A DNA stretch of 64,000 nucleotides, from the NCBI GenBank assembly GCA_964658305.1, contig OZ210885.1, positions 24,490,001-24,554,000 on the forward strand. The letters run 5' to 3'. How positions within the stretch are numbered: position 1 is the first letter of the stretch; each line of letters starts with the position of its first letter. Under the pieces are notes generated by a model. That model ran no database searches and was not told the origin of the DNA. It worked only from the letters and a program-made list of their open reading frames with translations. Of this stretch, positions 14,516 to 59,644 are shown in pieces. The translations under genes were made by a program, and so were the position numbers. The DNA comes from Leptogorgia sarmentosa. Its lineage: Eukaryota.

Positions 14516-14516
14516 T

Positions 14517-16196: not shown

Positions 16197-16261
16197 TCAG
16201 ACTCCTGTTATAATGCACGCTCATTAGCCAATCACGTTGCAGATTTTACCCTACTTATATT

Positions 16262-25123: not shown

Positions 25124-26869
25124 CCAGATTATTGTACACATTCTGATCGTTATAAATGTTATTCACAACTAAAAATTGTTTTGTTTGGAGTAAGTTGTGG
25201 ACAACCAAGTAAATAAGTGATAATTATATTCGTTGTATACCATCATTTTAAGTGTAAGTAAAGTATTTAATCAAACAATATTGTATTTTTATTTAAAGGC
25301 AAATGTATCAAAACATTGGAGTTTTACAATATGATTCATATGTACATCTTAATGGTTTTACAATTCTTATATATTTTTTGAAAAAAATTGCCATCTTCTT
25401 GACTTACAATGGAGATCAATTTCGGATATTCTTGCTAACCGAATATAATTTACAGATATTTTAGGCAGATTTAAGCATTATTTTACATAGTCAATATAAA
25501 GATATTCCAGAGACATTTGTGTTTTCATTTTCCGGAGAAAATAAAGAGGTTTTACAGACATTTAAAAATGTTGTATTCATGTCCTTAATTCACACAGAAA
25601 GTATGATCATTTTAAAGAGATTTTAGATTGAATTTTTAAAATGTATGTAAATTTTCAAAAATTTACATAGAAAACAATAATATTTTACATACATTCAGTG
25701 GTTATTTGAGCAAAGGATTACCTGGAATTTACACAGATTTTGTAGAGATTCGAATTTACAAATAAGAACTTGAGATTTTACAGAGAATTTCTTAACTTTT
25801 TTGATGTCTGTAAATGGTTCAGTTTTTCCAGTGTTCAATCCCTTCCTTTTAAAACAGTTTTCAACAGTGCTTTGCTCAAGCTACAATATGCCAAATCTGA
25901 TGCCAGATGACTTTACATTACATAATAGTTAAGTTAGTGGTTACAGGGTAATTCATTATCTTTTTTGCCCATTAAATCATACAATTTGGTAACAATATAC
26001 TAGAATCTTCTACATGCTGGAATCCCTCAAGAATTATAGAATCCCAGTGGGGCCATGATATGCCAATCAATTCAAAATCTACCCATGCAATCCACTCCAG
26101 ACCAACAAAGGGATGAGATTTAGGATAACATATAGCAGGACTTATTTGTATCATAATGACAAATATATTAGGAAAGCAATTTCCAATATTTTTACATGAT
26201 AAAATAGCAAGCTGCTATCAATAGTTAAATACTGCTGTGAACAGAGCTCATAAGACAATTCTACTTTTGAAGGTTTAGTGCTCAAATAATTTACAAAACA
26301 GGGCAGAAACTTTTTGCAAGAAGGAAATTGACTTTGGTAGAAACTTCGTGCAATTTTCACAGGAGATGTGAAAACTGAAAATGCAGTAGTTGTGGTCACT
26401 CAAGTTAACAAATAATGATTTACTAATGAATATACTGCCATTTCTTTTTATGAATTTACCTAGTATATGTTTTGAAATTTCACGGTGTGACTTCGAAATA
26501 TAGATGTTGTCTTTTTTCACATTTCGTGACGTTTTAACACTTTTTTTGACATTCACCGTTGGTAATAGAATATACAACATATCTTACTTTCAGTCCTTTG
26601 AGCAAATTTATCGGTAAATAAATAAAATGCCTAAATATGTCGAAAAAAACACTGCAAAACTGAAGTTTTTATAAAAAAACCAGGGGGGTGTGGAAAGGTA
26701 GCGGGCTCATAAATCGAGCCCTGGTAAGCGGTAATTCTGTGAGGTTTTCGGTAACTACTTCATAGTCTTGATCTATTGTGGATCCTAGCTGTAATGTATC
26801 TAAGGGTTCTATACATGTTCATAATCATGAATATCCTTTCCTAACCCTCGATAATGGTACATAACCCTA

Positions 26870-28141
26870 CATAGTACTACATAGTATTCCATAGTACTGC
26901 ATAGTACTCCATAGAACTCCACAGTACTCCATGGAACTCCATAGTACTCCATGGAACTCCATAGTATTCCGTGGAACTCCATAGTATTCCATGGAACTCC
27001 ATACAGGGTGTATCAAAAAAAAGTTTACTGATGAAAAACATTCTCTAAACTAACGAGCGCTCAAAATTTCCAAAAACTTTCGGTTAGCCTGGGTAGTTTA
27101 ACACCCTCTGGTATATCTAGTACTCAGTTTATTTTAAAAACAAACTTTTTTAGAATGGGAAATGTGGTTACTGAAAGGCCCATTAAAAACGGCTTGCGCG
27201 GAAAAAATAAGTTTTCTTCACACAATTTGATTTAATCGGATGAAAATATGGAGTATGATATACAAGCTATTCAAGTTTTGAGAAATTTGGTGCACGCTGA
27301 GACGAACGCGCGATGTCCGAAAACTGGATTTTTTCGCGTAATTACGGACCTTTGGGAATTAGCTTGCAATTTGCATTGGTAATTAATGCAAATATCCAAT
27401 TATGCATAAATTAATCGGTAATCACGCAGGAAAGAACGCAAAATCCAGTTTTCGGACATAGCACGTTCGTCTCAGCGTACACCAAATTTCTCAAAACTTG
27501 AATAGCTTGTATATCATACTCCATATTTTCAACCGATTAAATCAAATTGCGTGAAGAAAACTTATTTTTTCCACACAAGCCGTTTTTAATGGGCCTTTCA
27601 GTAACCAAATTTCCCATTCTAAAGAAGTTTGTTTTTAAAATAAACTTAGTGCTAGATATACCAGAGGGTGTTAAACTACCCAGGCTAACCAAAAGTTTTT
27701 GGAAATTTTGAGCGCTCGTTAGCTTAGAGAATGTTTTTCATCAGTAAACTTTTTTTTGATACACCCTGTAGTACTCCATAGAACTCCATGGAACTCCATA
27801 GTACTCCATGGAACTCCATAGTACTCCACAGAACTCCATGGAACTCCATGCAACTCCATAGTACTCCATGCAACTCCATAGAACTCCATGGAACTCCACA
27901 GTACTCCATGGAACTCCACAGTACTCCATGGAACTCCACAGTACTCCATGGAACTCCATAGAACTCCATGGAACTCCATGGAACTCCATAGAACTCCATG
28001 GAACTCCATAGAACTCCATGGAACTCCATGAAACTCCATAGAACTCCACAGTACTCCATGGAACTCCATAGTACTCCATGGAACTCCACAGTACTCCATA
28101 GAACTCCATGGAACTCCATAGTACTGCATAGAACTCCATAG
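26870..28141 (-). repeat. 10-bp satellite array, left arm of element B (interrupted by the MITE)
   Basis: Units such as GTACTCCATA and GAACTCCATG; reverse complement of the right array. Confidence 0.97.
27004..27768. mobile_element. Tc1/mariner-type MITE, almost fully palindromic
   Basis: CAGGGTGTATCAAAAAAAAG...CTTTTTTTTGATACACCCTG; arms about 330 bp; TA TSD at 27002-27003 and 27769-27770. Confidence 0.93.
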
Positions 28142-28922
28142 TCTTGCATATTACTCTGTAGATATTGGTAATAATGCTTTGTCTTGAAGGATAAACGATG
28201 ATAAATTTTGAAAACCAAACTCATCAGTGATGACAACCTCGCGACCATATTTTGCGAAGAGAGCATTCACTGGAAACAAGTATCGTTGAGTAGGCGGTAA
28301 CGGAGAACTTTTAACCGGTGTCCCCGACTAACGAATTGTCTATGAGGCATTCTATTGCAGTATTGCTTGGTACCCATTTATAATATTATGTTTTATTACT
28401 TGTAAAATGCGCTGGTGAAAAAAAAATGGACAATGCTGGAAACAACTTTAATCACATAACCTCAACGCTTCCTTCCATATTTTTGTTTTCTAATTTCTTT
28501 GAGTTAATACGACGACCCACATACACCTCAACACCGACGATTCATTTAAATTAATAATGAAGAGTTTTGACTACAGTTCTAAAGTTGAACATACTATCAT
28601 TATTTTATTATTATTAATATTTATACACGTTTATTAGCGTCTTATTACCATGACTTTCTTCTATTATTAATGGTGTTTTATGATGTTTATGAAGATAATG
28701 AATATGAAGTAGATATAGTAGATATCACTCGTACGCGTGTTGCTTCATACCGTTTAACGTAACAATCATATATTACTAACATAAAGCCCCCGGAAATAAA
28801 TGTTTACATTCACTTGGCCTGTGGAAATGCAAGCCATTGTCCTTTTCACACTCTATTTTTAAAACAATACCACTCAAATATGGTCGCCCAGTTATAGCCG
28901 ATTCTAATTTTTTCAATGGCAT

Positions 28923-31900
28923 TTATAAAATCTTTTGAGATTCTATCTCTTTTTGTACCATTTTAACATGGACCTCTTGCAACTTCTTCATGTGCATAAT
29001 TTTACCAGAAATCTGGCTGCTTGTTTTTTGCCCAATTGGTAAACCACTATTTTGAAGTGCAAGTGATGATGCCAAGTTGCGATAAAGAATGCTGCTGTTA
29101 ACTGCACTGTTCTGTAAAGGGCTTTCTTCCAAAATTTCCGATATTGTTATTAAAACAATTGTTTCAAGGTCTGTCCATGTACCAGAGTTTATGTTGAAAC
29201 CTTGTTCAGCAAGATATTCACATCCTTTGCTGCGGTGAAAATGTGGCTCGTTGTTTCTTTTCCTCTTGTTGGCTTGCCCTCTGGTATCTTTGTTTCCCAC
29301 TTCCAATGGTTTTCTGTTGCCACAGTTCTTGCATTTGCATGATGTAGAACAGTGTTGCGCATTTCGTAAACACGGGTATTTTGATTTGTGATTATTTGAA
29401 TCTTCACAAGCCACAGGTGACTTGTGACAGGAGCATTCTATTTTCGTCAAACTGTTAACAGCACTTTTACATTGTGAGTTACCGCACAACTTACATCTGC
29501 AGATACGTGAGCAAGTGACCTTCCTGGTAAAACAAGGGCATCTAGAGGTAGTGCACGAGGACGTGTTTATTTCACCTTTCCTTTTCCTGCCACAATTGCA
29601 TCCTTTTTCGTCATCTCTATTTCTCGTTCTTGCATGTACTTCCTCCTCTTGGGCATCTAAATGTATATTATACAGTCGTTAAGAAATATGAAACATTTCA
29701 GTGTTGACATACGGTTGTTGTGTTAAAACTAACAATGGTGGTAAATTAATTACTATTAAACATACCTGATGTTCCGTCATAATGTCCAGGCGATGTGTGG
29801 TTGAAGGTGATATAAATTGGTTTGGAAAAAATCATTTGAGTTGGAAAAAATGAAAATTGTGGTGCACTGGGGTAAGAGGTGATGACAACTATTGGCAATC
29901 CAAGAACGTTAGCGCAGACTTTAACACACAAATCTGCTAAGTTGCTGCCAAAACTGCCTTCTTGCTTAAGGTACGAAACTTCTTGGAAAAAGTGATGTTC
30001 GTCAAGGCCTATCCAATTCTTATAACGATCGACGTTATTCATTAACTCTTGTATGAAAAGCGTGCGAAGTAATGAAGCGTCCTCCTTGGTTGACTTTCCG
30101 AAGCCTATGCCTTTCAAAGTAGAAACAAAGTTTTTAATGTTTTCGTCATTGTCTAAACATAGCAATTTGGATAACTGAACGGTGATGCTATGAAAGCAAC
30201 AATTTCCGTCACCAACTACATTGTCGATTGTTAAGCTGAAAGACAGTAAATTTCTCAACAAAGTCTCTTTATTTCTTCCACTGTCAAGACAGAACTAAAT
30301 TTTAACTCAGGAGCTAAATTTTTCGTTTGTGTTCTAATCAGGCTTGCTTGTTGTTCCATTTGATGGAGAGGAAAACTTCCAAAAGTAATTCCACGATTGG
30401 CAGATTGGCTATTGAGACTATCAAACGTTTCTTGTAGTTGCAGAGCTTAACTTTTGAATAGTGTATGCGAGAATTTCATCTGTGTTCAAGTCTTCAACTT
30501 TATTTGCATTGTATATCTTTATTTTTATGTTCACTTGATCTTGAAATGTTATTGATGGGCAGTCTTGTCGAATATTTCCCTGTCGGTGCAAAAAGCAATC
30601 TGGTACACTATGTATGCCTGTATTACGGACGCCAAGAAACGTATCAGACACGCTGGAAGAATTCTGTTCAATGAAACATTCAGGTGGAACAATTGGGTAA
30701 ACTCTTTGATTTTTTGAATGTGTTCGCTTTTTTCTGCGACAGTTCCAGACATATATGCAAACTGTAAGGCAAGCTACTGCTAATTCTGGTGATATGGTAT
30801 TGGCTCCAACCAAAAGAGAACTGCGCAAATGTCTATGGAATCTTTCATTTTTTTCTGTTCCCTCACCAGGCAAAATACCTGAAAGGCAACCTACATCAAT
30901 GTGTTTCCTCAGAGTATCAATTGCTTTTGCATTCAACATACCCTCCCAGCGATAGAGAAATTGCTCTAAGTTTGCATTTATTATTTCTGGTATCGGTGTC
31001 GCTTGCTGCCTCTCGTCATCGAGATCATTGTCATTCCTGATTATCAAACCGAACTCTTTGCTAAACTGAAGTCTTCGGTTACTGTTATCAAATGTTTGAA
31101 TTACACGTTGGCAGGCATGAAAAATATCGAGTTTTACAAGTGTTTCTGCTCCAAAAACACTTTCATACAAACGCCGCATTTTGCAACAGTCGTCTAATAA
31201 TATAACTTCTATTCCAACACCTTTATCGTTATGTCGTTGTTTCAGATCAACCAAAAGATCTTTGATTTGACATGATCCATGTCACAATTTCTTCATGCTC
31301 GTTCATAACAAAAAGACAATTTTCGAACTGTTTCACAAAAGTGTTGTCATTCCGTTTAATAGATATGTGTTTACTGACTTTAAAGGTATGATCTAGCGAG
31401 AGAACAGTGCCAGTTAACTTTTGCATTTCAGTGGAATATGTATGTTTGATGGTTTCAAAATGCTCAAGAAATATCTGCATAAGTTTATCATTGCTGGGGA
31501 AAGAGTATAGCATGTCGGCATAAAATGAATCCACAATATTGTCACAATCGGTAAATGTTCTCTGATATTTTCGAAAATTAAGTAAGGGATGCTAACCGTT
31601 CTGAAATTTTCAAAAAGTTTTGTCCAAGTTCTATATTCGTCCAGATATCGTCAAGGAGGTCAGTCGTAAATGCACTTTTGTGGTGCAAGATGACTGGAAG
31701 TTGTGTAAGGGAGGTTTTGGGCAACCTGTCCAAAATTTCTTTGGATCCAGATAGATAGGTATGTTTTGGCCAGTTTAATCCATGAGGCGAATTGCACTCA
31801 TATAATCTTTGCACCAATATTATGTTACAACCTAAATCGTACGCAAGTCGTGGGTTCCAGTTACTCTTCTTCTCCAAATCAGACATCCATTTTTTGAGCT

Positions 31901-32156
31901 GCAGTCTACTATTATGAATAGGACATAACAGTTGCAGATTAAAGTGGCTAACTGGACACAAGATGAATATTTTTGGCAGGATTTTGCAATCTGGAGCGCT
32001 AGTTAATATGACATGATCAAAGCGAGGATGTTGAGGATCTTTATCAAACTCCTTTAATACAGATTGTAGCACATTATGTGCGTGTTTGCTGATAAATACC
32101 GCCCAACCAGTGGCCAAGATATAGAATACTATTACCAGTGACACAACTGTTGCCAT
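28923..32156 (-). pseudogene. MULE-like transposase fused to OTU protease, two CXC domains and a SANT-like tail
   Basis: LSLDHTFKVSK, MNEHEEIV, LLDDCC, VKLDIFHACQR, GTEKNERFHRHL; OTU VVGDGNCCFHSI...PGHYDG; intron 29765-29657; then CNCG...CPC...C...CRC..CGN and a second similar repeat, and WTDLE. Stops and frameshifts near 31578, 31250 and 30420. Confidence 0.72.
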
Positions 32157-32353
32157 AACAAGTCACTTAATTTACAGCAAAAACCAGTATTGAAAAGATA
32201 TTCGCATGTCTACTACACAACTGCGTTTAAGATAGCACAGAGATGAACAAAGGCGGTGGGCGTCTCGTCGGGATTTTCAGGTAACTCTAATGGGCGTGGC
32301 ACATGGTAAAGAAGAAAAAAAAAATTGTAATAGAAAAGTTACAAAAAAACAAG

Positions 32354-32479
32354 TAAAGCTATTCTTAGAACTGAACAAATGTCATTGGAATTGAAAATGA
32401 ACATGACAACAAGTCGATAAAGCTATTCTTAGAACTGAACAAATGTCATTGGAATTGAAAATGAACATGACAACAAGTC
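32354..32479. repeat. 64-bp tandem duplication in the divergent intergenic region
   Basis: TAAAGCTATTCTTAGAACTG...CAACAAGTC at 32354 and 32418. Confidence 0.92.
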
Positions 32480-33956
32480 AACTGTTTCTTATGGCAAGTG
32501 TGCACACTCCGGGTTACATGTGAAACAGCAGAATTCCAAAATTTGCTAGGATGATGGATATGGATGATCTGTTACAATGCGACACCAGCACAGACACAAA
32601 TATAGACTTCGATGAAAGATTGGATCAAGCGTTGGATAATGAATTAGACCAAGCCCGTGTTTCGCATCGGTCAGACAAGAGTAAAAATTCATCAAGGCGT
32701 AAATTTGTAGTTCAATCAGGCGAAATCGGCTATATGAAAGGAGACAATTTCGTGGCTGTTTCAAATTTTACGGTGGAATGCACTGGATTCGTCAGCAAGA
32801 ACGCAAACTCGACCACTGCTGAAGGCTATTTCATTGATGTCATACCAAAAGCATCCGTACAGGCTCCAGAGAATGATTGCAGCCTAAATACAAATACAGA
32901 AAAGAGGTAAGGATTATCAAAATACTACGATTAATTATACAGTAGCTATAAAAAAGTTCAAAACTTACTATAAATTCGTCAGCTTAATTCGCAGTCGTCG
33001 GCTGTTGTGCATTATGCATGATTTCAAAATTTTGTACACCTGCATGCCTTGTAGAAAACAGCCTGAATTGTTCAGCTTCTATTTTTGCATGGAAGACAAA
33101 TTGAAAGCTGGCAAAAAATTGCAATAATTATCACATGACTATCGAAATCATTTCCAAATTTAGATCGTAAGCCCAGTAATTACTTCGGTAACCACTAATG
33201 ACAAAGTTTTACCAATTTTGTTTTCTATTTTTCTAGGGAGTCGTATTATTTGACATGGAACAGTTGACAGGACAATTCGACGGCGTGCCATTAATAGTCG
33301 CTTATTAATTGGCCAGTTTGATAGAGTTGAGATAAATTTATTTTTATTTGATTTCTTGCTTTGAAATAGACCTAAGACCTTATCATTGTGATCTTATGCA
33401 TAATAACGCTTTGTTGCGTTGCGTGCTTGTGTAACTAATTTGACATCTTTTCCCTTCAAATTAAAGTAGCTAGTGCATGTGCGCGCAGGTTAAGTTATAT
33501 TTGTAAAAACATTTTATGTATTTAATTTTTTGTTTGCGCATGATTGTATATTTAGAGTGCACCCTGGCTGGGCTTGTTAAAATGATAGGAAACCAGAGTC
33601 TACCGTTTTGGTGGGATGACGCGGACAAATTTTCCATCCTAGAGAAGTTGGCTGTCATGGCATTTAACAAAGTAATAATTTTGATAGTGTACAAGTATTT
33701 TTTAACATTCAATTGTTTAGGTTTATTAATAGGTTTTTTGTTGCTCATTCATGTTTCTAATTCTACAGTCCAAAAAGAAGACATTAAGAAAAATGGATGG
33801 GGAATGCAACAGCGCAAGAACCGTGCCTTTAGTTACTATGAATCCAACAACATTGACAAAGACGATCCTCAACAACAAAGAGAAGTTATCCAGGTAAATG
33901 TAATTTAATTCACATTTTTGACAACTATATATAATGTGGTTTGGTGTAGTTATATG

Positions 33957-36900
33957 TGTAAGAAACTGCTAGACAGTGTTATTTATAACCGGAACTGAGT
34001 TGGGACTTCCGGTTAGCACTGCGGGGGGGTTTTGTTGTTGTTGTTGTACAATTTTGAGGCAACGGGTTTGGTTGTGTTTTTTTTGGAACGATCGAGGATC
34101 AATAAAATGTCTAAATAAATCAGTGTGCGACTTTATTATATGGCGCCTAACGTGGGGCACTAGCCCAGTCGAAAGTTTGAGAAGATTATTTGCGAACCGA
34201 TCGAAATGTCAACCGGACAGCAAGCCAGTAACGAGCAGGGCGGCAGCGAAGCAACGAACAGCGAGGCGACGATTACGAACAGCATAGCAATGAAAAATTT
34301 CGAGAGAACCAAAGCGATACGAAGGGGACACCGTGGCGTTGTAACGAAATTGACTAACGAGGTTTCATCATACTACAGTACCGAAGAAAAATTACCCGAA
34401 GCGATGTTATACCGTTTAGAAATAATCGACCGAAATTTAGAAACCAAACTACGAGTACGCGAGGAGTTGAATCAACAAGTATTAGACGTTTGCGAAGTCG
34501 AAGAAATCGAAACAGAAATCGAGGAAGCCGAAGCAATTTTGTGGAAAATATTGGAGTGTAGAAAAATTATTGGCATAACACAGCAAAGGCAAGAATCGCT
34601 GCGTCACGAGGAGTTGTCACAAGCGCAAGAATCGAATTCGCAAGAGGAAATACAAGCTACACAACCACAACAACTTGAAGTCACAGCGCAAGAGGAAGGT
34701 TCGTCACACGAGGTGGTCAATCAAAGTCAAGGTCAAGGTACTGTGATAAACAATGTTAGTTCGACTCCAAATGTTAATACAAGCTCTATTACACGAACGC
34801 GTTTACCGAAGCTCACGCTACTAAAATTCAAGGGAAACATTATAAACTGGACAACATTTTGGGACTCTTTTCAATCAGCCATTCACAACAATGGGGACAT
34901 TACCGACATTGACAAATTCCGGATGAAATACGATTGCACATTGCACGAAGGAGCTCCAAAAATGTGTGGGAAATTAGTGAATTGCTCGAAATCATTAAGG
35001 TTGAAGTGGAACCACGAGAGGCGAGCAGTGCAGTGAAGGTCAAAGAGAGTCGCAGACAAAATGAACCCACAGGACATCAAAGAAACCGGCAGTCGTCAGC
35101 AGGAACGTTTACGACTAGAGTGAATGGTGTTGCTCCGGATAGTATCAAGTGCGTATATTGCAACGATAGCCACTTTTCCGCTTCATGCAAGAAATTTACC
35201 GACGCTAGGGAAAGAAAGGACATTCTGTATAGGGACGGACGGTGTTTCAACTGTATAAGAAAGGGGCATCAGACAAAGGATTGTCAAAGAGCTAAAACAT
35301 GTCGTGTGTGTAGTGGAAGACATCACCAGTCAATTTGCACGAGCCAGAAGGAAACCCCGAGGCCTAACCCAGACAACGAATCGCGGCAACCCCAGGCGAA
35401 GGCGGCTCAATTAGACTCTGTTACCAAGACAGTGACAGTAAAGGGCGAAAGAGTAGGGAAAACGGTTCTTCTGCAGACAGCTACAGCCGTCGTGTTCAAT
35501 GAAAGCAACTCCAAATCGGTACCTGTTAGAATCTTGTTCGACAATGGATCTCAACACTCGTATGTTACATCCCAGTTGAAGTCTCGTTTGGGTCTGAAGC
35601 CAATCAAAACAGAGACATTGCGTCTGAACACCTTTGGTCAACCTAATTACAGGAAGGAGAAATGTTCGGTTGTGAAACTTTGCTTGAAGAAACGCGAACA
35701 GGAAATTGACCTAGTTGCATTGGACTACCCCGTCATCTGTTCTCCACTTCCAACGAAGGTTTGCATCGAGCATCCGCATTTAGAGGGCCTAGAGCTGGCG
35801 GACGATTGTGAAGGCGCGTCGGCCGATATCGATATCCTTGTAGGATCGGATTATTATTGGGAGTTAGCTCGAGGGGAAGATGGCCCGACCGCAGTTGCCA
35901 GTAAGCTGGGATGGTTACTGTCTGGACCGCTGGGGGATACAGAAGAGAGCTCAAACCTTTCAGTATCCAATCTAATTATCGCTGGAAATTGCAATTCGCC
36001 CGAGAACGCAACACTAAGTGACCCTATTGTCGAAGCACTACGGCAGTTCTGGGATGTGGAGACGGCTGGCGTAATAGACAAGACTCCACCATACGACCAA
36101 GTGATAGACGACATCCGATTTGACAAGGATCGTTATGTTGTTGGACTTCCCTGGAGTTCAAAACTGTAATCCCGAATGTACCAATTACGAACTGAGTCAC
36201 AACCGTTTGAGATCATTGCACTACAAGCTCAGAAATCAACCAGATATTCTAAAGGAATACGATAGCATCTTAAAGGGACAACTCGAATCCGGAATTATAG
36301 AGGAGGTACCCAAGGACGAAATCGAGATACGAGAACCGAGTGAAGTACACTACACACCCCACCACGCGGTCGTCAGGAAGGACAAGGAGACAACGAAGGT
36401 TAGAATTGTGTATGACTGTTCGGCCAAACCAACGTCGCAGCAACGTTCGCTAAACGACTGCATGGAAACTGGTCGTAATTTTATTCCAAAATTGTTTGAA
36501 GTGTTGATCAAGTTTAGAAGCAATCCAATTGGCCTCGTGGCAGATATCGAGAAGGCGTTCCTCATGGTCGGAATACGAAAGGAAGATCGCGATCGGTTGC
36601 GGTTCTTGTGGTTTAAGCATCCCGAGAGCGCAAATCCGGAATTGGTGCAAATGCGTTTTTGTCGTCTCGCTTTTGGATTGAAGTGTTCCCCATCCATGCT
36701 AGGAGGAACAATTATGCACCATTTAAAATCGTACAAAGAGCGCTTTCCTGACATTGTAGAGATAATCAAGGAATCCCTGTATGTGGATGACCTGGTGTCT
36801 GGATCAACAAGCGATGATAAAGCGTTCGAAATTTATGAGAAATCGAAGAAAATATTCGCAGATGGCGGGTTTAACTTAAGAAAGTGGAGTTCGAATTCGA

Positions 36901-39862: not shown

Positions 39863-40979
39863 ATATGGTTCATCATCAACTGCCATAAATTCTTGTTTCA
39901 GAACGTTCTCAAGGATCGCAGTAATTCCATAAGTGTGGGTGTGGTGCTGGAACTGAGAGAAGAATATAGGAATATTAGAAATGATCCTATGTTTCTTGAG
40001 ATGACGGATGCCATAGAAGCTGTAGAAGAAATGGACATGCGAGCACAGTGCAATTATGCACTGCTTTTTTACAGTACAATCAAGGTATGGTCAATATTTT
40101 TAACTGGTTATGAATATCGAAACGATCAAACGAATTTGCGAGCTTTTCATGGACACAATCAATCGCCCTGAACTGAACGAGTTCAGTGGATATTGTGCAT
40201 TATAGATTAATTATTGCAAAGTTTGGTTACATTGTAAAGTATGCGAATTTGGTATTTACTTGTGTTATGCACGCGAATTTTATTCCGGTTTTTCCGCGCG
40301 TAATACGAGTATATCATTTCCTCATTTTAAAAGGTTCTCATTAAATATATACGTTGTATAATAAATAAATGCAATTGCCTAATACTTCTTTAAAATCACA
40401 GATTTTGCAAAAAATTGGAATGACGGAAAGTCTTTTTCCCTTCATGAAAGACTGGATGGTGAACGTTCTGTTACCAGCGCATCTAAAGCTTGTGGGAAAA
40501 TGTGAAACAAATATTGAGAACCCGGCAAATGAAGCCTTGTACAAGGCGATGCGAGATGATATCTCTCAAACTTGCAACTTGGTTATAGGAATAGTAAAAA
40601 AAGCTATTTCTAATCCGAAAGTTTGTTGTTTGATGGATAAAAATGGAGTATTTTGGTGAATTTTAATTAAGTCCTAAATTAATGCTGTACCATGTATTAT
40701 ATATGATTTCATTTCTGGGCAAAAGATTTTTTTAACCCAATGTTAAGTGCAAGGAAGTGTTTTTGTGGTCAGGTGTTTGCTTTTAACGTTCCCAAGGCTC
40801 TTTCGTTCATTGGGTCGAATTGTTCAGGTGATCTTTTAAGGTCATATGTCCGCAGTCAAGGTGTTGGATGCAACGGAGTGAAGTTTAATGTTGATAACAA
40901 ACAGTATGTGGGAACGCACATTAGATATAGTACTCTGCCAGAAAGCGTACGTGAGGATCTTCTCAAAGGTGAGTATGTG

Positions 40980-46782: not shown

Positions 46783-47109
46783 GTGACAATGTATTAACTT
46801 ATTTGTACATGTATGAAATTGAAAAATTGCTATGCATATGTAATCGAAATTTATTCAAAATCAAAACACATCACAGCACTATAAAGAGACATTTAACCGA
46901 TACTTAAAATGGTGAAAATCAATGTTACGTATAATTCAATAGGTCCTACGGTTTTAGGTGTTTTTTTTATAATTCTACAGGTCCTACAATAGGCCTGCAA
47001 ACATCGTATACCATGCGACATTTGCATTTAACATCATTATATGTGTATTCTATTATACTTTTTAGCTTTCGATATTCAGCATGGTACCAGTGACAGTAAA
47101 TCCATCAAC

Positions 47110-47485
47110 GAATACGTTGAACCCACCAGAAAATCTGTTGAACCCACCAGAAAATACATTGGACCCACCGGAATATACGTTGAACCCACCTGAAAAGACG
47201 TTGAACCCACCAGAAAGTACGTTGAACCCACCAGAAAGTATGTTGAACCCACCAGAAAATACGCTGAACCCACCTGAAAATACGTTGAACCCACCTGAAA
47301 AGACGTTGAACCCACCAGGAAATACGTTGAACCCACCAGGAAATACGTTGAACCCACCAGGAAATACGTTGAACCCACCAGAAAAGACGTTGAACCCACC
47401 AGAAAGTACGTTGAATCCACCAGAAAAGACGTTGAACCCACCAGGAAATACGTTGAACCCACCAGAAAAGACGTTGAATCCCCAG
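47110..47485. repeat. 21-bp minisatellite, about 18 copies
   Basis: Consensus GTTGAACCCACCAGAAAATAC. Confidence 0.97.
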
Positions 47486-48671
47486 GTGAACACATGAGGT
47501 CAGTTCACAAGGCTGTTTCATGCTGTTATAGCTTTATTAGTAGTTCATGCACAAGCCAGCATAAAAGTGGTCCGCGAATGATAATTGGAGTGCACCCAAT
47601 ATGTTTTGTGAAGTATAGTTTTACGTACGGTTTGATCTCTGATCTAATATACAATAAGATTACTCGCTCTCCTTTTATACGAGATGATAGTTGATTTAAG
47701 CTTCATTCTCATCACATATCATTTCATAGAGTTCTCGAGCTAGCTCGTAATCTAATTATAAATTAGAGGAAATGGTCATTTATCGTACCATTGAAACATG
47801 ATTGAAGGAATAATCAAAGACGAAACTGATTGAAAATTGTGAAATCGTCGCAAGATGTATCGTAAATACTGCAGTAAATACTTTTTAAATGCTTGTTCTT
47901 TTTTCTTAGGTGGAATGAACAAAAAGAAAAGAAGTGCATTGAGTGACTCGCTAACGGACTACTTCAAGCCATCAGCTAAAAAAAGACGTTAATATGTTGA
48001 CAAAATCATTACCACTGCCACAGAGTAATTACACACAGGGGTCTCACTTGGCGAAAAAATACAGGAGGAAAAAATCCATGCCCTTAATTAGTTTACCTAT
48101 TTGTTTGTAGCCAGCCTCTGGGTGCGACATTGCTGGCGGCCAGACAAAAACACCTTGCGCTTTGTTGAAGCGATAACCTAACCTACCCTGTGTGTGTTAC
48201 TGCGGTTCATGTTATCTTTTTAATACGAAGTAGTAAATGACTTGTTTAAAAATAAACTGCTTCTTTATTGGGACGATTTCAAGTTTGTTTTTTCACGTAG
48301 TGGTAGTGGTAGCGAGTTGTGTATGGTGACCATGGTCTTAAACCTGAAGTTTGCGACGACTTACAGTAGTCACACTATGGGCGTTCAACAAAACTTAGCA
48401 GTACAAATTTTCCCATGGCAAACTTGAAAGTCTTGTATTCAGTTTAAATTCTTTTTATTAGGAACTATAATCAAGAATTAATACATGCCCCAATTTCGGC
48501 GTGATGCCTTGTGTCACTTTAGCATCTTCTTTTGCCAATTGATAGTATTTTGTTTTGGGTGTGTCAAATTGCGTACAGGCATGCAGCAATTCTATCACGT
48601 AAGACTGGGGCTAACAAAGTCTTGAAAAAAGGAATGAATGGAAAACATATTTTAGAATCAAGGGCAGAATA

Positions 48672-48792
48672 CTATTAGTACTATGGAGTACTATGTAGGG
48701 CTATGTACCATTATGGAGGGTTAAGAAAAGATATTCGTAATTCATGATTACGAAGATGTATAGAATGCTATGTAGTACTATGGAGTTCCATG
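48672..48792 (+). repeat. Degenerate internal copy of the element B right-TIR segment plus the first 10-bp units
   Basis: TATGTAGGGCTATGTACCATTATGGAGGGTTAAGAAAAGATATTC...ATGTATAGAA resembles 57500-57567 in the same orientation. Confidence 0.8.
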
Positions 48793-51700
48793 AACAAGGG
48801 GGAATTTCGTTCTCGACCAATCAGTGCATTTGTTGACATTTTTGCGCTAAGCCAATCAGAACGCGTAAATCGCTATTTTGTAAACAAAGATGGGTACAAA
48901 TATATACTTTACTCTTCGGCTTTGTTGCCATTGGAATCTTGATATTTTATTCTGAAATTATAATATGTTGTTTAGGAAAGATTTTCCTACAATATTACCG
49001 TGGCGATTTGTAAATAATGGCGATTTCGGGGAGATATGCACGTCCAAACTTTGCCGCGCGCAAGCATAAATAATGCCCTTCGAATCCACCAACCTTTTGA
49101 CATCTTAACTTATTAACTTGTTAATTTCCCGTTTCTAAACATGGTGAATTCACGATCAGAGTGTCATGAGTCATGACATGCACACATGACAAACGGATGC
49201 TTTGCGAACGTTTTCAATCGCTTTTATTTTGCGAAGGAAAGCGAATGATATTCTGAAACTCACCGAACTTCAAGACATCGAAGTCTCAAACCTATGCCAA
49301 CATTTCACCCTCGATATCAAATTGAAGACAGTCTGTGTGTCGGTTGTATTTTGGAATTCGCCTTCTTCATCAACATCAAGCGACTCGAGAAGTGACTCGT
49401 CCTCGTTGTCATCTTCTTCATTGTCTGTCAAAGTTTCCTCATCATCGGGCCCTTGACTGTCGTCTGATGAAGGAGCGAACTCATGGACTGCTTTATTTGC
49501 CGCTTCTCCGAGTGATGCAGCTTTCGACATGAGGAACTCTTGGCAAATCTTGCACACGCTTATGTCTGGAAGGTTGCACTGGAGATGAAAGGAATGCCCA
49601 CAGCCAAGAAAGACGCGCCATAATGTGCTTGTGTGAGTGCAATGGACGGCATCACACACTCTGGTTTAAATCACAGAGTAAGAATAAGGTAAGGACTGAT
49701 CTATATATTTTTATTATTATGACCGATTATATGTAACTTACTTTTGTGGATTTGGTGACATTTCCACTGAGAAAAATCCAAGTGGGAGCACTCTGTTGGT
49801 TACAACTTGGTCACCAAATAAATTGGGTAAGACCCATCTGCTCATGTCCTTCCTCTGCCTGTGCTGCCGTGGTTGTTGGGTGGCTTGTCCTGAGTGGGAG
49901 TGGATTAGCTCAAACTTTTTAACTAAATATTCAGCTGCTTTGGTTTTTAAACAATCAATCCGCTTTCTGCTGAAGTTAAATTTTCTGGGTGGGACAAATG
50001 ATGACTGAGACTCCTGCATTTCTGTCTTGCATGCATCAATCTCTCTGGCCTTCTCCTGAACTTGCTCTGCCATGTCTGTGTCGTTTGTCCTTGCTCTGAG
50101 CACAGAGTGGAAGTTTTCCACAGGGTATTCGTCCAAAGCTACCAAAAATTGTTGGATGACGTGGTTCAGTGGGTGATTGTTTTCATGCCAATAATGGAAA
50201 TTAGAAAGAGCAATAAGCAGTGCTTTATCGTAATGCCGGCGACAAAATACCATCATCATAACCCAACAACGGAATAATGATTTGCAGTAGAGGTTGTAAT
50301 TACTGCCCTTAAAGACAACTGAGTAAATGCTTAGCACAAGTGGCACATAGTTATCGATGAGGTTGACTAAGGTAAGATATTCAATGTCCTTGCAATTTGG
50401 GAAAACTGACATAATAGTGTCTCGAATAAGAGTCCAACCCCCATAGATGACCTCTAGGAGTAAGGATAGTCGCCAAGCTTTCGGTTTTTTTGCCAGCTTT
50501 GCCTTTGTGCCGAAGAGGAATGAATACAGTTCAGCAAATACAGTGTGGAACTGGAGGAAAACAGACTCTCGGGAGTTTAAGGAAATATGTAGTGGGCCAA
50601 TAAGTGGGATGACGTTGTTGCAGACAGTGGGAAGAGATACAGATGCAGTGTTGTACACAAGTTGTCGCATGAAGAATTGCATAGGCCAATCTGCAGGAAA
50701 GGGAGCTACGAAATTGCTCAGGTAATCTTCTAAACCATTAGCCAATATATGTTTGAAAGCAACCAGGACATCTTTGTAGGATTTCAAGGGCAATTTGAGA
50801 CTGTCAACAAGCTTGGTGTTATCCATACGTCGCATCTCTCTGATTTCGGTCTGTTGATAGTCATGAATTGCAACTCGCTTTTTTTCTGCCTCGGGGTCAA
50901 AATACTCGGCAACTGCCCAATCAGGCATTGTGCTGGCATATGTTTGGGAACAAGTGCTCATATGCTCCACTATTAACTGTTTCAGTGAAGTTTCCTCAAC
51001 AGGATTAGCAGGTAATATAGGGTGAATGTAATCATTAGGAACAGCTTGAATGTTTGGAAAAACTTTGACAAGGAGAGTTGTGGTGTGCACTGCTTGGGTT
51101 TGGGTCTTACTCTCAGGACGGTGCTTCGTATGAATGTTATGATAATCGTCAATACAAAATATAATAAATTGTTGCTTTTCTATTACAGTTTGAAAGAATA
51201 CTTTCACTCTATCAAGGTGGGAAGCTGATGAAGTTAGCATAGAGGCTTTCATGGTACGTGGGTGTGCAACAATCCCCAGATTTCGCAGCGATGCAAGTCC
51301 TTGCTGGCTAATACCGAACTGTTGAAGGGTTCTTGCCAGAGATAATTGGAACCAGTTAGCACGCTGTGACCTGGAATACATCATGATGTACAGTACAACC
51401 ATAACTCTTAGCTTTGTCAACTGCTGCCGCTCACCTGACATCCGAGTTGAACTCATTGCATTGATGAATGTCGAAAAGAGATTTGAAACTCCAGCCTGTG
51501 TACAAATTTCTTGAAATTGATCAGGATCCATTACAGGGGGCTGTGGATCATATGCAAGAAAGAATGTTTTCAACTTTTCTAGGTCACCTTCAATGTCGAT
51601 GATATCAGCAGTTTTTCGAAGCAGCTCTTCATATTCACCCTTTGAAATGACAGTTACTTCTGTTGTCTGGCACTCAACACTTGTCTTTGTCTTCAAAACT

Positions 51701-52985
51701 TCAAATACCTCGGAATTTTGACTTGGGGAACTCAGTGTGACAGTTGACTCAGTGCTTTGGCTACCAGATAACTGAATGGTGGAAATACTTGCAGTTTGGG
51801 TGTGTTCACTACTGGGTGATGAGTAGGAGGCGGAATGGACAGGGACACTTGCAGTCGCAGCCACATCTTCATTTTCTTTCACAAACTCACTTGGCAGATA
51901 AGTCGATAAACTGTTCAGCTACATTAAGAAAATATTTACCTGTTTATTACTACTATGTTAATTCCCAAATTACTATAGAATGCGAATGCGGGCCACACAC
52001 TGGCAAGTAATGGTAACTTGGCAAAACAATAGTTTTGACTTTCGGTACCTGCCAGAGTACTGTATTAATGGTGTGAAACCAATACAGTATACATTACTAA
52101 TGTCCACTCCAATGTAGTCCAAATGTTGTTTATGTCCATACAGCACATGTAACCCTAAACTTTTTTCATGTCACTAAGTCTCTTTCATTTTTTTTTCAGA
52201 AAATACTGACTTACAAGATATATCAATAATATTCCAATATACATTATTATTCCATTAGTATTCCCCTTACCTTCATTTCAATACTGTCCATATGTAGTCG
52301 TTTTGGCAAATGACGAGTGATATTTCTCTTTTTGAGGCACTCGTGAATACAATTTTTGCAAAGTTGGCTGATTTTTTTTGACGTTTCAATTTGTTTTTCA
52401 CATGCCAAAAAAATAGAAAGCGCTTGTCCCAACTCACACCAACCAAACGCTTTTAATTTTACCATCTTGGAGTCTTCATACCCTTCAGACCACTCGTTGT
52501 GAAGAGGGTTATTGCACTTTTTTCCAAATCTAGGCATTTTATTGTACGAATTTCTCAAGCGGATAACTATAGAACAACGTATAGACTTCGAAAGACTTGT
52601 GTGTTTGGAATTCATTATTTTCCCGTTGGCGGGAAAATATAGCGTTCGAAAGAACACTATATCTAATTTCGATTTAATTTCGAGTTTGGTGGATTCGAAG
52701 GGCATTATTTATGCTTGCGCGCGGCAAAGTTTGGACGTGCATATCTCCCCGAAATCGCCATTATTTACAAATCGCCACGGTAATATTGTAGGAAAATCTT
52801 TCCTAAACAACATATTATAATTTCAGAATAAAATATCAAGATTCCAATGGCAACAAAGCCGAAGAGTAAAGTATATATTTGTACCCATCTTTGTTTACAA
52901 AATAGCGATTTACGCGTTCTGATTGGCTTAGCGCAAAAATGTCAACAAATGCGCTGATTGGTCGAGAACGAAATTCCCCCTTGTT
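48793..52985 (-). mobile_element. Unclassified 4193-bp DNA transposon X, apparently intact
   Basis: 300-bp TIRs 48793-49092 and 52686-52985 (AACAAGGGGGAATT...; one mismatch seen); exact 9-bp TSD AGTTCCATG on both sides; inserted in the 10-bp satellite. Confidence 0.93.
49270..52537 (-). CDS. 944-aa putative DDE transposase with N-terminal Cys/His cluster and C-terminal RING-H2
   Basis: Exons 52537-52271, 51918-49742 and 49660-49270 splice GT-AG in phase (2835 nt, no stops). Motifs CIDDYHNIH, PADWPMQ, IGPLHISLN, EYPVENFHSVLR; RING CDAVHC...CGHSFHLQC...CKIC; acidic tail. Confidence 0.8.
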
Positions 52986-55900
52986 AGTTCCATGGAGTTC
53001 TATGCAGTACTATGGAGTTCTATGGAGTACTATGGAGTACTATGGAGTACTATGGAGTACTATGGAGTTCTATGCAGTTCTATGGAGTTCTATGGAGTTC
53101 CATGGAGTACTATGGAGTTCTATGGAGTTCTATGCAGTTCTATGGAGTACTATGGATTTCTATGGAGTTCCATGGAGTACGATGGAGTACTGTGCAGTTC
53201 TATGGAGTACGATGGAGTTCCATGGAGTACTATGGAGTTCCATGGAGTACGATGGAGTTCTATGGAGTTCCATGGAGTACTATGGAGTTCCATGGAGTAC
53301 TATGGAGTTCCATGGAGTACTGTGGAGATCTATGCAGTACTATGGAGTACTATGGAGTTCCATGGAGTACTGTGGAGTTCTATGGAGTACTATGGAGTTC
53401 CATGGAGTACTGTGGAGTTCCATGGAGTACTATGGAGTTCCATGGAGTACTATGGAGTTCCATGGAGTACTGTGGAGATCTATGCAGTACTATGGAGTAC
53501 TATGGAGTTCCATGGAGTACTGTGGAGTTCTATGGAGTACTATGGAGTACTATGGAGTTCCATGGAGTACTATGGAGTTCTATGGAGTTCCATGGAGTAC
53601 TATGGAGTTCTATGCAGTACTATGCAGTACTATGGAGTACTATGGAGTGCTATGGAGTTCCATGGAGTACTATGGAGTTCTATGCAGTTCTATGCAATAC
53701 TATGGATTTCTATGGAGTTCCATGGAGTACGATGGAGTTCCATGGAGTACTGTGCAGTTCTATGGAGTACGATGGAGTTCCATGGAGTACTATGGAGTTC
53801 CATGGAGTACGATGGAGTTCTATGGAGTTCCATGGAGTACTATGGAGTACTATGGAGTTCCATGGAGTACTGTGGAGATCTATGCAGTACTATGGAGTTC
53901 CATGGAGTTCCATGGAGTTCCATGGAGTACTGTGGAGATCTATGCAGTACTATGGAGTACTATGGAGTTCCATGGAGTACTGTGGAGTTCTATGGAGTAC
54001 TATGGAGTTCCATGGAGTACTATGGAGTTCTATGGAGTTCCATGGAGTACTATGGAGTTCCATGGAGTACTATGGAGCTCCATGGAGTACTATGGAGTTC
54101 CATGGAGTTCCATGGAGTTCCATGGAGTACTATGGAGCTCCATGGAGTACTATGGAGTTCTATGGAGTTCCATGGAGTACTATGGAGCTCCATGGAGTAC
54201 TATGGAGTTCCATGGAGTTCCATTGAGTACTGTGGAAATCTATGCAGTACTATGGAGTACTATGGAGCTCCATGGAGTACTATGGAGTTCCATGGAGTTC
54301 TATGGAGTTCCATGGAGTACTATGGAGTTCCATGGAGTACTGTGGAGTTCCATGGAGTTCTATGGAGTTCCATGGAGTACTATGGAGTTCCATGGAGTAC
54401 TATGGAGTTCCATGGAGTACTATGGAGTTCCATGGAGTACTATGGAGTTCCATGGAGTACTATCGAGTTCCATGGAGTACTATCGAGTTCCATGGAGTAC
54501 TATGGAGTTCCATGGAGTACTATGGAGTTCCATGGAGTACTATGGAGTTCCATGGAGTACTATGGAGTTCCATGGAGTACTATCGAGTTCCATGGAGTAC
54601 TATGGAGTTCCATGGAGTACTATGGAGTTCCATGGAGTTCCATGGAGTACTATGGAGCTCCATGGAGTACTATGGAGTTCCATGGAGTTCCATGGAGTTC
54701 CATGGAGTACTATGGAGCTCCATGGAGTACTATGGAGTTCTATGGAGTTCCATGGAGTACTATGGAGCTCCATGGAGTACTATAAAGTTCCATGGAGTTC
54801 CATTGAGTACTGTGGAGATCTATGCAGTACTATGGAGTACTATGGAGCTCCATGGAGTACTATGGAGTTCCATGGAGTACTATGGAGTTCCATGGAGTTC
54901 TATGGAGTTCCATGGAGTACTATGGAGTTCCATGGAGTACTGTGGAGTTCCATGGAGTTCTATGGAGTTCCATGGAGTACTATGGAGTTCCATGGAGTAC
55001 TATGGAGTTCCATGGAGTACTATGGAGTTCCATGGAGTACTATGGAGTTCCATGGAGTACTATCGAGTTCCATGGAGAACTATCGAGTTCCATGGAGTAC
55101 TATGGAGTTCCATGGAGTACTATGGAGTTCCATGGAGTACTATGGAGTTCCATGGAGTACTATGGAGTTCCATGGAGTACTATCGAGTTCCATGGAGTAC
55201 TATGGAGTTCCATGGAGTACTATGGAGTTCCATGGAGTTCCATGGAGTACTATGGAGCTCCATGGAGTACTATGGAGTTCCATGGAGTTCCATGGAGTTC
55301 CATGGAGTACTATGGAGCTCCATGGAGTACTATGGAGTTCTATGGAGTTCCATGGAGTACTATGGAGCTCCATGGAGTACTATAAAGTTCCATGGAGTTC
55401 CATTGAGTACTGTGGAGATCTATGCAGTACCATGGAGTACTATGGAGTTCTATGGAGTTCCATGGAGTACTATGGAGCTCCATGGAGTACTATGGAGTTC
55501 CATGGAGTACTGTGGAGATCTATGCAGTACTATGGAGTACTATGGAGTTCCATGGAGTACTGTGGAGTTCTATGGAATACTATGGAGTTCCATGGAGTAC
55601 TATGGAGCTCCATGGAGTACTATGGAGTTCCATGGAGTACTATGGAGTTCCATGGAGTTCCATGGAGTACTATGGAGTTCCATGGAGTACTGTGGAGATC
55701 TATGCAGTACTATGGAGTTCCATGGAGTACTGTGGAGTTCTATGGAGTTCCATGGAGTACTATGGAGTTCTATGGAGTTCCATGGAGTACTATGGAGTTC
55801 TATGGAGTTCCATGGAGTACTATGGAGTTCCATGGAGTACTGTGGAGTTCCATGGAGTTCCATGGAGTACTATGGAGTTCCATGGAGTACTATGGAGTTC

Positions 55901-57505
55901 CATGGAGTACTATGGAGTTCCATGGAGTACTATGGAGTTCCATGGAGTACTATGGAGTTCCATGGAGTACTATGGAGTTCCATGGAGTACTATGGAGTTC
56001 CATGGAGTACTATGGAGTTCCATGGAGTTCCATGGAGTTCTATGGAGTTCCATGGAGTACTGTGGAGATCTATGCAGTACTATGGAGTACTATGGAGCTC
56101 CATGGAGTTCCATGGAGTTCTATGGAGTTCCATGGATTTCTATGGAGTGCCATGGAGTTCCATGGAGTACTGTGGAGATCTATGCAGTACTATGGAGTAC
56201 TATGGAGTTCCATGGAGTACTGTGGAGTTCTATGGAGTACTATGGAGTTCCATGGAGTACTATGGAGTTCCATGGAGTACTATGGAGTTCTATGGAGTTC
56301 CATGGAGTTCCATGGAGTACTATGGAGCTCCATGGAGTACTATGGAGTTCCATGGAGTACTGTGGAGATCTATGCAGTACTATGGAGTACTATGGAGTTC
56401 CATGGAGTACTGTGGAGTTCTATGGAATACTATGGAGTTCCATGGAGTACTATGGAGCTCCATGGAGTACTATGGAGTTCCATGGAGTACTATGGAGTTC
56501 CATGGAGTTCCATGGAGTACTATGGAGTTCCATGGAGTACTGTGGAGATCTATGCAGTACTATGGAGTTCCATGGAGTACTGTGGAGTTCTATGGAGTTC
56601 CATGGAGTACTATGGAGTTCTATGGAGTTCCATGGAGTACTATGGAGTTCCATGGAGTACTATGGAGTTCCATGGAGTACTGTGGAGATCTATGCAATAC
56701 TATGGAGTACTATGGAGTTCCATGGAGTACTGTAAAGTTCTATGGAGTTCCATGGAGTACTATGGAGTTCTATGGAGTACTATGGAGTTCTATGGAGTTC
56801 TATGGAGTTCCATGGAGTTCTATGGAGTTCCATGGAGTACTATGGAGTTCCATGGAGTACTGTGGAGGTCTATGCAGTACTATGGAGTTCCATGGAGTTC
56901 CATGGAGTACTGTAAAGTTCTATGGAGTACTATGGAGTTCCATGGAGTACTATGAAGTTCCATGGAGTACTATGGAGTTCCATGGAGTACTATGGAGCTC
57001 CATGAAGTACTATGGAGTTCTATGGAGTTCCATGGAGTACTATGGAGTTCCATGGAGTACTGTGGAGATCTATGCAGTACTATGGAGCTCCATGGAGTAC
57101 TATGGAGTACTATGGAGTTCCATGGAGTACTGTGGAGTTCTATGGAATACTATGGAGTTCCATGGAGTACTATGGAGCTCCATGGAGTACTATGGAGTTC
57201 CATGGAGTTCTATGGAGTTCCATGGAGTTCTATGGAGTTCCATGGAGTACTATGGAGTTCCATGGAGTACTGTGGAGATCTATGCAGTACCATGGAGTAC
57301 TATGGAGTTCCATGGAGTACTGTGGAGTTCTATGGAGTTCCATGGAGTACTATGGAATTCCATGGAGTACTATGGAGTTCCATGGAGTTCTATGCAGTAC
57401 TATGGAGTTCCATGGAGTACTATGGAGTACTATGGAGTTCCATGGAGTACTGTGGAGTTCTATGGAGTACTATGCAGTACTATGGAATACTATGTAGTAC
57501 TATGT
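52986..57505 (+). repeat. About 4.5-kb 10-bp satellite (YATGGAGTWC), right arm of element B
   Basis: About 450 in-register units, mostly TATGGAGTTC and CATGGAGTAC, with recurrent variants TGTGGAGATC and TATGCAGTAC. Confidence 0.99.
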
Positions 57506-57866
57506 AGGGTTATGTACCATTATCGAGGGTTAGGAAAGGATATTCATGATTATGAACATGTATAGAACCCTTAGATACATTACAGCTGGGATCCACAATA
57601 GATCAAGACTATGAAGTAGTTACCAGGTTTTCAGACCAGTTGTCATGGAAATGGCATCAGCAAATGACGAATTTTTGGCTTCACTTTTTGTTCGCGTGCG
57701 CTTCCTCCAGTATGGTGGCCGAGAACTGCCATTTCGAAAATTGAGTTTATTTTCATTTTATATCAACGTGGCCGAGAACTGCCAACTGCCAAATTATCTA
57801 TACCCATTTGTCCTTAATATCCATCATATTACCCATAGTTACCCTTAGTTATCACAAGCTGTTAAG

Positions 57867-59358: not shown

Positions 59359-59420
59359 ATAAACATTTGGCATAACTTACCACTTATTATAGTATTTATA
59401 TTTTGCAAATAATTTTAATA

Positions 59421-59446
59421 GTTGTTGTTGTTGTTGTTGTTGTTGT
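59421..59446. repeat. (GTT)n microsatellite
   Basis: About 8 GTT units. Confidence 0.9.
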
Positions 59447-59644
59447 GGTGATAAGACACAGAGCCATTGGTACATGCAAACAATTTTGCTGTACAATTTG
59501 TCAGAACGTTGCATTATAACGTTGACTGATCTGTGATCAGAGACTGTACTTTTATATGTGTATCTTGTTACTTTTGTTAAAATAAAATGAATTGTAGAAT
59601 ATTTCAGTTGAATGTTTGAAAGATGTCAATATAGTACATTCGAA

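Follow-up and report, generated by a model that had tools for sequence, protein, structure and literature searches.

Foldback arms that feed satellite arrays are known from Tetris of Drosophila virilis, which is described with modular terminal inverted repeats (TIRs) of flanking, tandem-repeat and inner domains, arm repeats that grow to kilobase arrays, a target-site duplication (TSD) of 8-10 bp and a repeat related to the TIR (PMC4079207). The same features were found in a 31-kb element of Leptogorgia sarmentosa, located in a 64-kb stretch of contig OZ210885.1 (the whole of this stretch is called the window below). In Tetris the unit measures 220 bp and no transposase is known (PMC4079207), whereas units of 9-10 bp and coding genes are found here. 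The element is a single real insertion, now defective, with satellite arms running inward from its TIRs and two genes, one for a predicted DDE transposase and one, likely, for a DUF927-type P-loop ATPase (Table 1).

The arms of FB elements are made of short tandem repeats. FB and FB-NOF have long inverted arms, unequal arms and a large cargo in common with the element, and FB4 is described as lacking autonomy, the transposase that mobilizes it being unknown (PMC8277862). Membership in FB was rejected on TSD length, which by description only is 9-10 bp in FB4 in contrast to 8 bp here (PMC8277862). A first-pass annotation of the window had treated a Mutator-like element (MULE)-related protein of FB-NOF as established; this is disputed (PMC4079207, PMC8277862), Badal et al. 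2013 being counted with the exceptions to the assignment of foldbacks to Mutator (PMC4079207), and the analogy to FB-NOF is valid for shape only. MULE-type transposases are described within foldback-like ends in Tm1 and Phantom (PMC3169594) and within minisatellite-bearing ends in Rehavkus (PMC6446971), but these have TSDs of 9 bp, a FLYWCH or a PHD domain and a single open reading frame (ORF), in contrast to the 8-bp TSDs, OTU and CXC domains and two genes found here (PMC3169594, PMC6446971). Rehavkus membership was rejected because the TSD is 8 bp and not 9 bp, two genes are present and no PHD match was obtained in homologs of the first gene (PMC6446971). The structural foldback class (FB, Tetris, Tm1, Galileo) is recognized by long modular inverted arms with variable tandem repeats, and such arms are present in the element.

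A single insertion with inverted satellite arms

The TIRs open with GGTAACTAC at 26750 and close at 57624, and the two ends of the element differ by 1 mismatch over the outermost 203 bp, comprising 120 bp of unique TIR and the first 8 satellite units. Re-measurement of ends and arrays verified the proposal of the first-pass annotation that inverted satellites continue directly from the TIRs within an exact 8-bp TSD: the left and right arrays belong to a single repeat family and stand in inverted orientation to each other. Four nested inserts had also been proposed; a TSD was found for each, and their removal leaves a core of 14,188 bp (previously estimated at 14.2 kb) with two divergent genes.

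Public contigs from 4 of 15 listed sequencing runs (including X1, X4, X5 and X7) were compared with the window. Both flanks of the element are a high-copy interspersed repeat, and contig depth jumps exactly at 57625 in X1, X4 and X5. In a 104-bp X1 contig, left-flank-like sequence runs straight into the right flank with one target copy. This contig represents an unoccupied paralogous copy of the target repeat and not necessarily an empty allele of the locus; the claim of one insertion is borne out by it, and the empty allele named as a check was encountered in paralogous form. A second TIR-plus-satellite end was present in X1, about 90% identical and with 1.3 kb of different flank outside. In X7, which represents a second organism, a related gene 1 (roughly 90% alike) was found, as was the inner TIR segment with satellite flanks at high depth. 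One contig of 4,274 bp matches 28110-32383 with zero differences, and the lesions of gene 1 described below are therefore present in that dataset too; X1 may derive from the sample that also gave the window.

The arms are very unequal, about 0.5 kb on the left against about 4.5 kb on the right, and the left array lies in two parts (26870-27003 and 27771-28141). The right arm contains exact internal duplications (352 and 349 bp), which agree with growth by slippage and unequal exchange. At 48670-48747 a copy of the inner 78 bp of the TIR was found, 86% identical. A search of the whole window for the satellite unit pattern gave no occurrence outside the element.

The exact internal repeats of about 350 bp, together with the lack of any public contig bridging an array in the 4 runs, could also be taken to mean that the right 4.5-kb array was inflated or misjoined in assembly between genuine boundaries. 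This is very improbable, as the units of the right array vary in non-random order along it, the arms of relatives are comparably long (1-4.8 kb), the TSD and the empty site bind both element ends together, and the 4,274-bp contig is identical to its part of the window.

The predicted transposase and the likely ATPase

Gene 1 encodes a predicted DUF6729-family DDE transposase joined to an OTU protease domain and, beyond a predicted intron, a CXC exon; the window copy is frameshifted at three places (near 31582, 31260 and 30485-30324). DUF6729 and OTU occur together in 32 longer homologs, among them proteins of Nematostella vectensis and Sanderia malayensis, from which a cnidarian host is probable. 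In a 31-row alignment, counted over ungapped rows, the catalytic residues were conserved at D261 (28/28), D334 (31/31) and E453 (29/29), and the OTU Cys and His motifs were retained in most rows. The C/DxxH motif located after the second D and before the E (D356/H359) was invariant in 31/31 rows and reads DIFH in the window copy; DxxH also occurs in Dada, hAT, Kolobok and P and is not diagnostic for Mutator (PMC10045372).

The fold was modelled on the gene 1 homolog P0003 (predicted local distance difference test score, pLDDT, 79), which is 58-65% identical over matched blocks. In a Foldseek search with this model the top five matches were ISCth4 (E 9e-9 to 5e-6), followed by OTU domains and the P transposase. 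ISCth4 is taken here to be an IS256-family transposase. The gene 1 product is predicted from this homolog to be a DDE transposase of IS256/Mutator fold, and to that extent the first-pass interpretation is supported. With Mutator/MULE and IS256 (ISCth4, PDB 6xgx/6xg8) the element family has in common the predicted DDE fold, the C/DxxH motif and long TIRs, and its 8-bp TSD lies within the 4-10 bp, mostly 9, reported for IS256/MuDR (PMC6446971, PMC10045372). It differs from them in an N-terminal DUF6729, C-terminal OTU and CXC domains, a constant 8-bp TSD, GG(T/C) ends and a second gene for a DUF927-type ATPase. For one MULE group of Hydra, MuDR-6_HM, an "Ovarian Tumour Gene" motif is given in PMC6446971, a likeness by description only, and the words "helicase" and "OTU" are absent from the main text of that paper.

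Weighing against the assignment are the moderate template modelling scores to ISCth4 (0.46-0.54 by target, at 12% identity) and the absence of a Pfam MULE match in the window pieces, in P0003, P0007, P0013 and P0027 and in an intact 1074-aa ORF of a complete relative. No gene 1 relatives were found in the viral contig collection. Another superfamily with 8-bp TSDs (P/Galileo, Merlin, hAT or Zisupton) could be considered instead, given that the TSD and DxxH are compatible with P, that the P transposase is a significant fold match in its own right (E 6e-4), and that 8-bp TSDs are made by Merlin (PMC10045372). ISCth4, however, outscores P by five orders of magnitude, Hermes (hAT) reached only E 0.014, and Pfam THAP, IS1595 and KDZ gave no match in gene 1 pieces or homologs; such an affiliation is judged highly unlikely. 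Merlin, of which GG ends are typical, was rejected on the lack of an IS1595/IS1016-type Pfam or fold match, agreement being limited to the 8-bp TSD and GG ends. P/Galileo was rejected on the absent THAP match, the Galileo transposase being described with an N-terminal THAP domain (PMC4079207), and on a P fold match below that of ISCth4. The element is probably to be placed near MULE/IS256.

Gene 2 is likely a DUF927-type P-loop ATPase related to proteins of bacterial plasmids; neither this nor the damage to both genes had been noted at first pass. Its window copy contains stops and frameshifts, and Walker A is gone near 33305, where an X4 contig encodes GKPVSGK. No Pfam or database match was obtained with the gene 2 exons, and a homolog search with exon 1 was empty. 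Four exons match the head-to-head gene of metagenome locus L005 (tblastx E 8e-28). The L005 gene carries a Walker A sequence (GKPVSGKTT), a Walker B sequence (LPFLWDD) and a sensor motif, and it matches the ATPase profile at E 7e-22. These three motifs were aligned and are retained in several relatives (alignment A3 omits one row, the G002:C3 exon). A homolog search with the L081 ATPase exon gave nothing, and the family was recovered by profile search only, comprising 1,594 clusters at E<=0.001. Its long members are uncharacterized proteins of Amphimedon, Patiria, Branchiostoma and Ptychodera, and three long members carry C-terminal peptide repeats resembling the 21-bp tract of the window. In one of the family's Amphimedon proteins (P0091) a PHD finger follows the repeat tract, suggesting chromatin targeting.

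The best named atlas neighbors of the ATPase are DUF927 clusters (0.97). By hhalign it was matched to a Prim-Pol protein of a Gloeothece (cyanobacterial) plasmid, WP_013325793.1, with probability 98.9 over 242 columns that take in the N-terminal part, both Walker motifs and the sensor motif; this protein was first found with one alignment member, and the match reaches regions missing from that member. A DUF927-type ATPase domain is likely common to the plasmid primase-helicase and gene 2, whereas gene 2 belongs to an animal, has introns and a C-terminal peptide repeat, carries no primase domain and lies inside a DDE transposon. Helicase-bearing eukaryotic DDE elements are known in AcademH (PMC10045372). 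Several results tell against the ATPase assignment. The short window exons gave no direct match to the ATPase profile; they match L005 and L005 matches the profile, so that the assignment for the window is transitive, via one relative. The best score to the DUF927 Pfam family PF06048 was 19.9-20.3 bits, below the cutoff of 22.6, and the predicted ATPase structure was poor (pLDDT 39) and was not used. PDB sequence searches gave nothing significant, and PHROGs and phage matches were weak.

Relatives, arrays and neighboring elements

In a genome scan, 5 loci were found in metagenome-assembled genome (MAG) records on contigs with introns and transposons, for which an animal host origin is inferred. 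The records concerned (L081-L085, G001-G003) are labeled prokaryote, and their long, intron-rich and transposon-rich contigs of animal type are likely host contamination. Three complete relatives of 11.8-19.4 kb were identified in such animal-type contigs, each with GG(T/C) ends, an 8-bp TSD, inverted arrays of 9-bp units 1-4.8 kb long and both genes. The 8-bp TSD and the GG(T/C) ends are thus found in 4/4 complete elements. The repeat unit differs between subfamilies, each complete relative having its own. The two-gene foldback build seen in the window is repeated in full in these relatives; head-to-head orientation, also claimed at first pass, holds for the window copy and G001:C30, but in the other 2/4 complete elements, L083 and G003:C18, the genes are in tandem, and the orientation varies within the family. 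The truncated copy L085 has inverted arrays of 10-bp units. L082 has its right flank in common with L083 and was left uncounted as an independent element, as was the 113-bp inverted repeat of L024, which has no TSD. Paired ends were not found in G002:C3 and G001:C63. In L081 (G001:C30) the inner arms hold an inverted duplicate of the transposase CXC coding region, 97% identical over 604 bp; here the foldback arm has extended into the transposase gene.

The ATPase was found in 4/4 complete elements and in L005, L084 and G002:C3. From the conserved motifs and this co-occurrence, it is fairly likely to be a working partner of transposition. It could instead be a passenger, either a host gene that was captured or a piece of some other mobile element, in an ordinary one-gene Mutator-like foldback. 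The order and orientation of the two genes are variable, and the ATPase family is large (the 1,594 clusters) and annotated as ordinary genes in the four animals named above. Against a working partnership, the ATPase was seen in 1/80 metagenome loci (L005), most of which have short flanks; the 10-kb interior of L013, which has inverted 17-bp arrays at both ends, gave no ATPase match from array to array; and 4 ATPase loci in G002/G003 (the fourth, L137, weak and not re-found) have no gene 1 match within 10 kb. A passenger is nevertheless rather unlikely: the ATPase lies inside 4/4 complete elements in two arrangements, beside transposases that share no more than about 29-38% identity with the query homolog, 20 control stretches gave no ATPase match, both Walker motifs and the sensor motif are preserved in several copies, and repeated independent capture of the same gene would be unlikely. 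The ATPase of L134-L137 may serve other, more diverged transposases. At L134 an ISL2EU-type THAP-DDE element beside the ATPase was rejected as its carrier, since its own TIRs exclude the ATPase. At L135 a 1.1-kb array of 17-bp units lies downstream of the ATPase gene.

Arrays (period 8-20, >=100 bp) were present in 21/80 metagenome loci (15/42 clusters) vs 2/20 control stretches; family loci totalling 332 kb held 23 such arrays, and 400 kb of control held 2. With a looser filter no array lay within the gene in the metagenome loci. Arrays are tied to the transposon family. The further first-pass proposal, that the element generates satellite DNA, is supported only in part, by the link of arrays to the family and the recent right-arm duplications; an arm may also give rise to free-standing satellite. 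Points to be set against the link are that 59/80 metagenome loci, mostly on short contigs, show no array, that controls came from hosts other than those of the metagenome loci, and that contigs tend to end at arrays (13/23 arrays touch a contig end).

Pre-existing satellites might have been captured, or the element merely placed among satellites, in which case the arrays would not have been born in it. Similar transposases of one cluster do occur with two unrelated units (L026 vs L036), one unit was found again in different clusters (L002, L055), and the origin of an array was never observed as an event. In 4/4 complete elements, however, the array begins about 30-150 bp from the end, on both sides and inverted; TIR-derived modules lie within arrays (window 48670-48747 and the left arm of G003:C18); and in the window the unit was not found outside the element. 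An outside origin of the arrays is accordingly considered improbable. L026 and L036 have transposase regions 92% identical that are followed by unrelated 20-bp array units, a contrast that would reflect either rapid unit turnover or one family nested in another.

The four nested inserts are of different kinds. The foldback miniature inverted-repeat transposable element (MITE) in the left arm is presumably of Tc1/mariner type, a label taken from its TSD. The long terminal repeat (LTR) retrotransposon in gene 2 has the TSD ATATG, read from its flanks, and is presumably BEL/Pao-type by its motifs; its LTRs differ by 2-3 substitutions in about 185 bp, against 1 in 203 for the host TIRs, and the idea of a greater age for the LTRs was given up. 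The second insert in a gene 2 intron gave no Pfam match and is presumably Academ-like by resemblance. The element in the right arm is young, its TIRs being 99.3% identical; it contains a 726-aa ORF together with a small ORF of RING-like type, Pfam gave no significant match, and the likeness to the adjacent Academ-like ORF is weak (E 0.14). By its TSD length it is possibly of an AcademH-related lineage.

Elsewhere in the window, the target repeat (25800-26749, 57625-57712 and after 61442) was struck twice, by the satellite-armed element and by a second TIR element (57709-61442) encoding alpha-kinase-domain ORFs (Pfam PF02816, E 3e-26); beyond 61442 the repeat continues as in its other copies. 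A large nested element at 2864-17351 has 544-bp inverted ends (97%) and a HECT-domain ORF; inside it also lie an LTR element that is Gypsy-like (7603-13165) and a fragment resembling BEL.

Table 1. Coordinates of the satellite-armed element, its parts and inserts in the window, and of its complete relatives on their own contigs
Feature	Position	Strand	Remarks
Satellite-armed foldback-type transposon	26750..57624		31 kb, contig OZ210885.1
Left TSD, AGGTTTTC	26742..26749		8 bp, exact copy; single copy at empty paralogous site
Right TSD, AGGTTTTC	57625..57632		8 bp; runs on into high-copy target repeat
Left TIR, unique part	26750..26869	+	120 bp, 5'-GGT end
Right TIR, unique part	57505..57624	-	120 bp, paired with left TIR
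Left satellite arm	26870..28141	+	10-bp repeat, variants CATGGAACTC / CATAGTACTC / CATAGAACTC; ~50 units, split by MITE
Right satellite arm	52986..57504	-	~450 ten-base units, 10-bp register unbroken
Inner edge of right arm	48662..48792	-	Diverged copy of TIR inner segment with few satellite units beside it
Gene 1, predicted DUF6729-family DDE transposase with OTU protease and CXC exon	28923..32156	-	
Gene 1 catalytic motifs	LDHTF 31396-31382; DDCC 31194-31183; DIFH 31128-31117; NERFH 30849-30835	-	
Gene 1 OTU protease domain	30210-29776	-	
Gene 1 predicted intron	about 29657-29765		CXC exon beyond
Gene 2, likely multi-exon DUF927-type P-loop ATPase	32551..47992	+	Exon model predicted by hand
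Gene 2 exons, first part	near 32551-32907, 33237-33320, 33557-33671, 33769-33893	+	Third with Walker B LPFWWDD, fourth with LVTMN
Gene 2 exons, second part	near 39902-40085, 40402-40648, 40780-40968, 47066-47485, 47910-47992	+	
21-bp minisatellite	47111..47485	+	Likely codes C-terminal repeat tract of gene 2
Nested foldback MITE	27004..27768		CAGGGTG ends, TA TSD; very high depth in public contigs
Nested LTR retrotransposon in gene 2 intron	33957..39862	+	LTRs 33957-34140 and 39677-39862; broken frames
Nested DNA transposon in gene 2 intron	40980..46783	+	TAG..CTA ends, 3-bp TSD GTG
Nested element with 303-bp TIRs	48793..52985	-	TIRs 99.3%; 9-bp TSD AGTTCCATG cut in satellite
Complete relative L083	271-13841		13.6 kb, TSD GGTCAAAC, genes tandem
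Complete relative G001:C30	96616-116010		19.4 kb, TSD CCAAGTGC, genes head-to-head
Complete relative G003:C18	274895-286717		11.8 kb, TSD ACAATTAT, intact 1074-aa ORF, genes tandem

Proposed transposition and meaning of the family

With good confidence, the locus is read as a defective foldback insertion of a marine-invertebrate family in which a transposase of predicted IS256/Mutator fold would cut at the GG ends and insert the element with a stagger of 8 bp; it would probably bind the repeats of the arms and have the ATPase as a probable helper. Cut-and-paste movement by such an enzyme, at these ends and with this stagger, is held to be just as probable. One unit of the arm repeats corresponds to about one turn of the helix, and the repeats may serve the transposase or its CXC domain as multiplied binding sites, as has been proposed for Galileo and Tetris (PMC4079207). 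Arrays would grow through slippage and unequal exchange, which would leave unequal arms with the outer 200 bp still matched. The ATPase may act on DNA during transposition, either by unwinding the folded arms or in loading or target capture. IstB, TnsC and MuB are ATPases of the loading or target-capture kind. The OTU domain might strip ubiquitin off the transposition complex or chromatin. The window copy makes neither protein, and therefore was either mobilized in trans or became defective only once it had inserted.

Satellite-armed foldback architecture is familiar from Tetris and Tm1. Literature searches, outside which lay Repbase (it may list members), gave no description of DUF6729 or DUF927 tied to transposons, nor of Mutator-like OTU/CXC proteins with an ATPase. 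The transposase lineage, the constant 8-bp/GG signature and the plasmid-type ATPase partner appear undescribed in the searched literature. The fuller proposal is held tentatively, at slightly under an even chance: an undescribed lineage of animal transposons, in at least cnidarians and sponges, in which DUF6729-OTU-CXC proteins are IS256-fold transposases dependent on a plasmid-type DUF927 helicase gene and the arms are subfamily-specific satellites of 8-20 bp.

The window copy is dead, and its value is chiefly as a lead to the family. Most described satellite-armed foldbacks are without a transposase, and the link between repeat and enzyme is therefore not testable there (Tetris, PMC4079207; FB4, PMC8277862). 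The present family provides complete two-gene elements with repeat units of their own, one with an intact 1074-aa transposase ORF; since each is paired with its own unit, the idea that repeats are multiplied binding sites growing into satellites becomes testable. A likely function is suggested for two protein families annotated as uncharacterized in many marine invertebrate genomes, and the adoption of a bacterial plasmid-type ATPase by an animal transposon is indicated. If the proposal is true, a eukaryotic transposon would here have an AAA+ partner dedicated to it, like the bacterial IS21, Tn7 and Mu, and the family would be a steady source of new short satellites.

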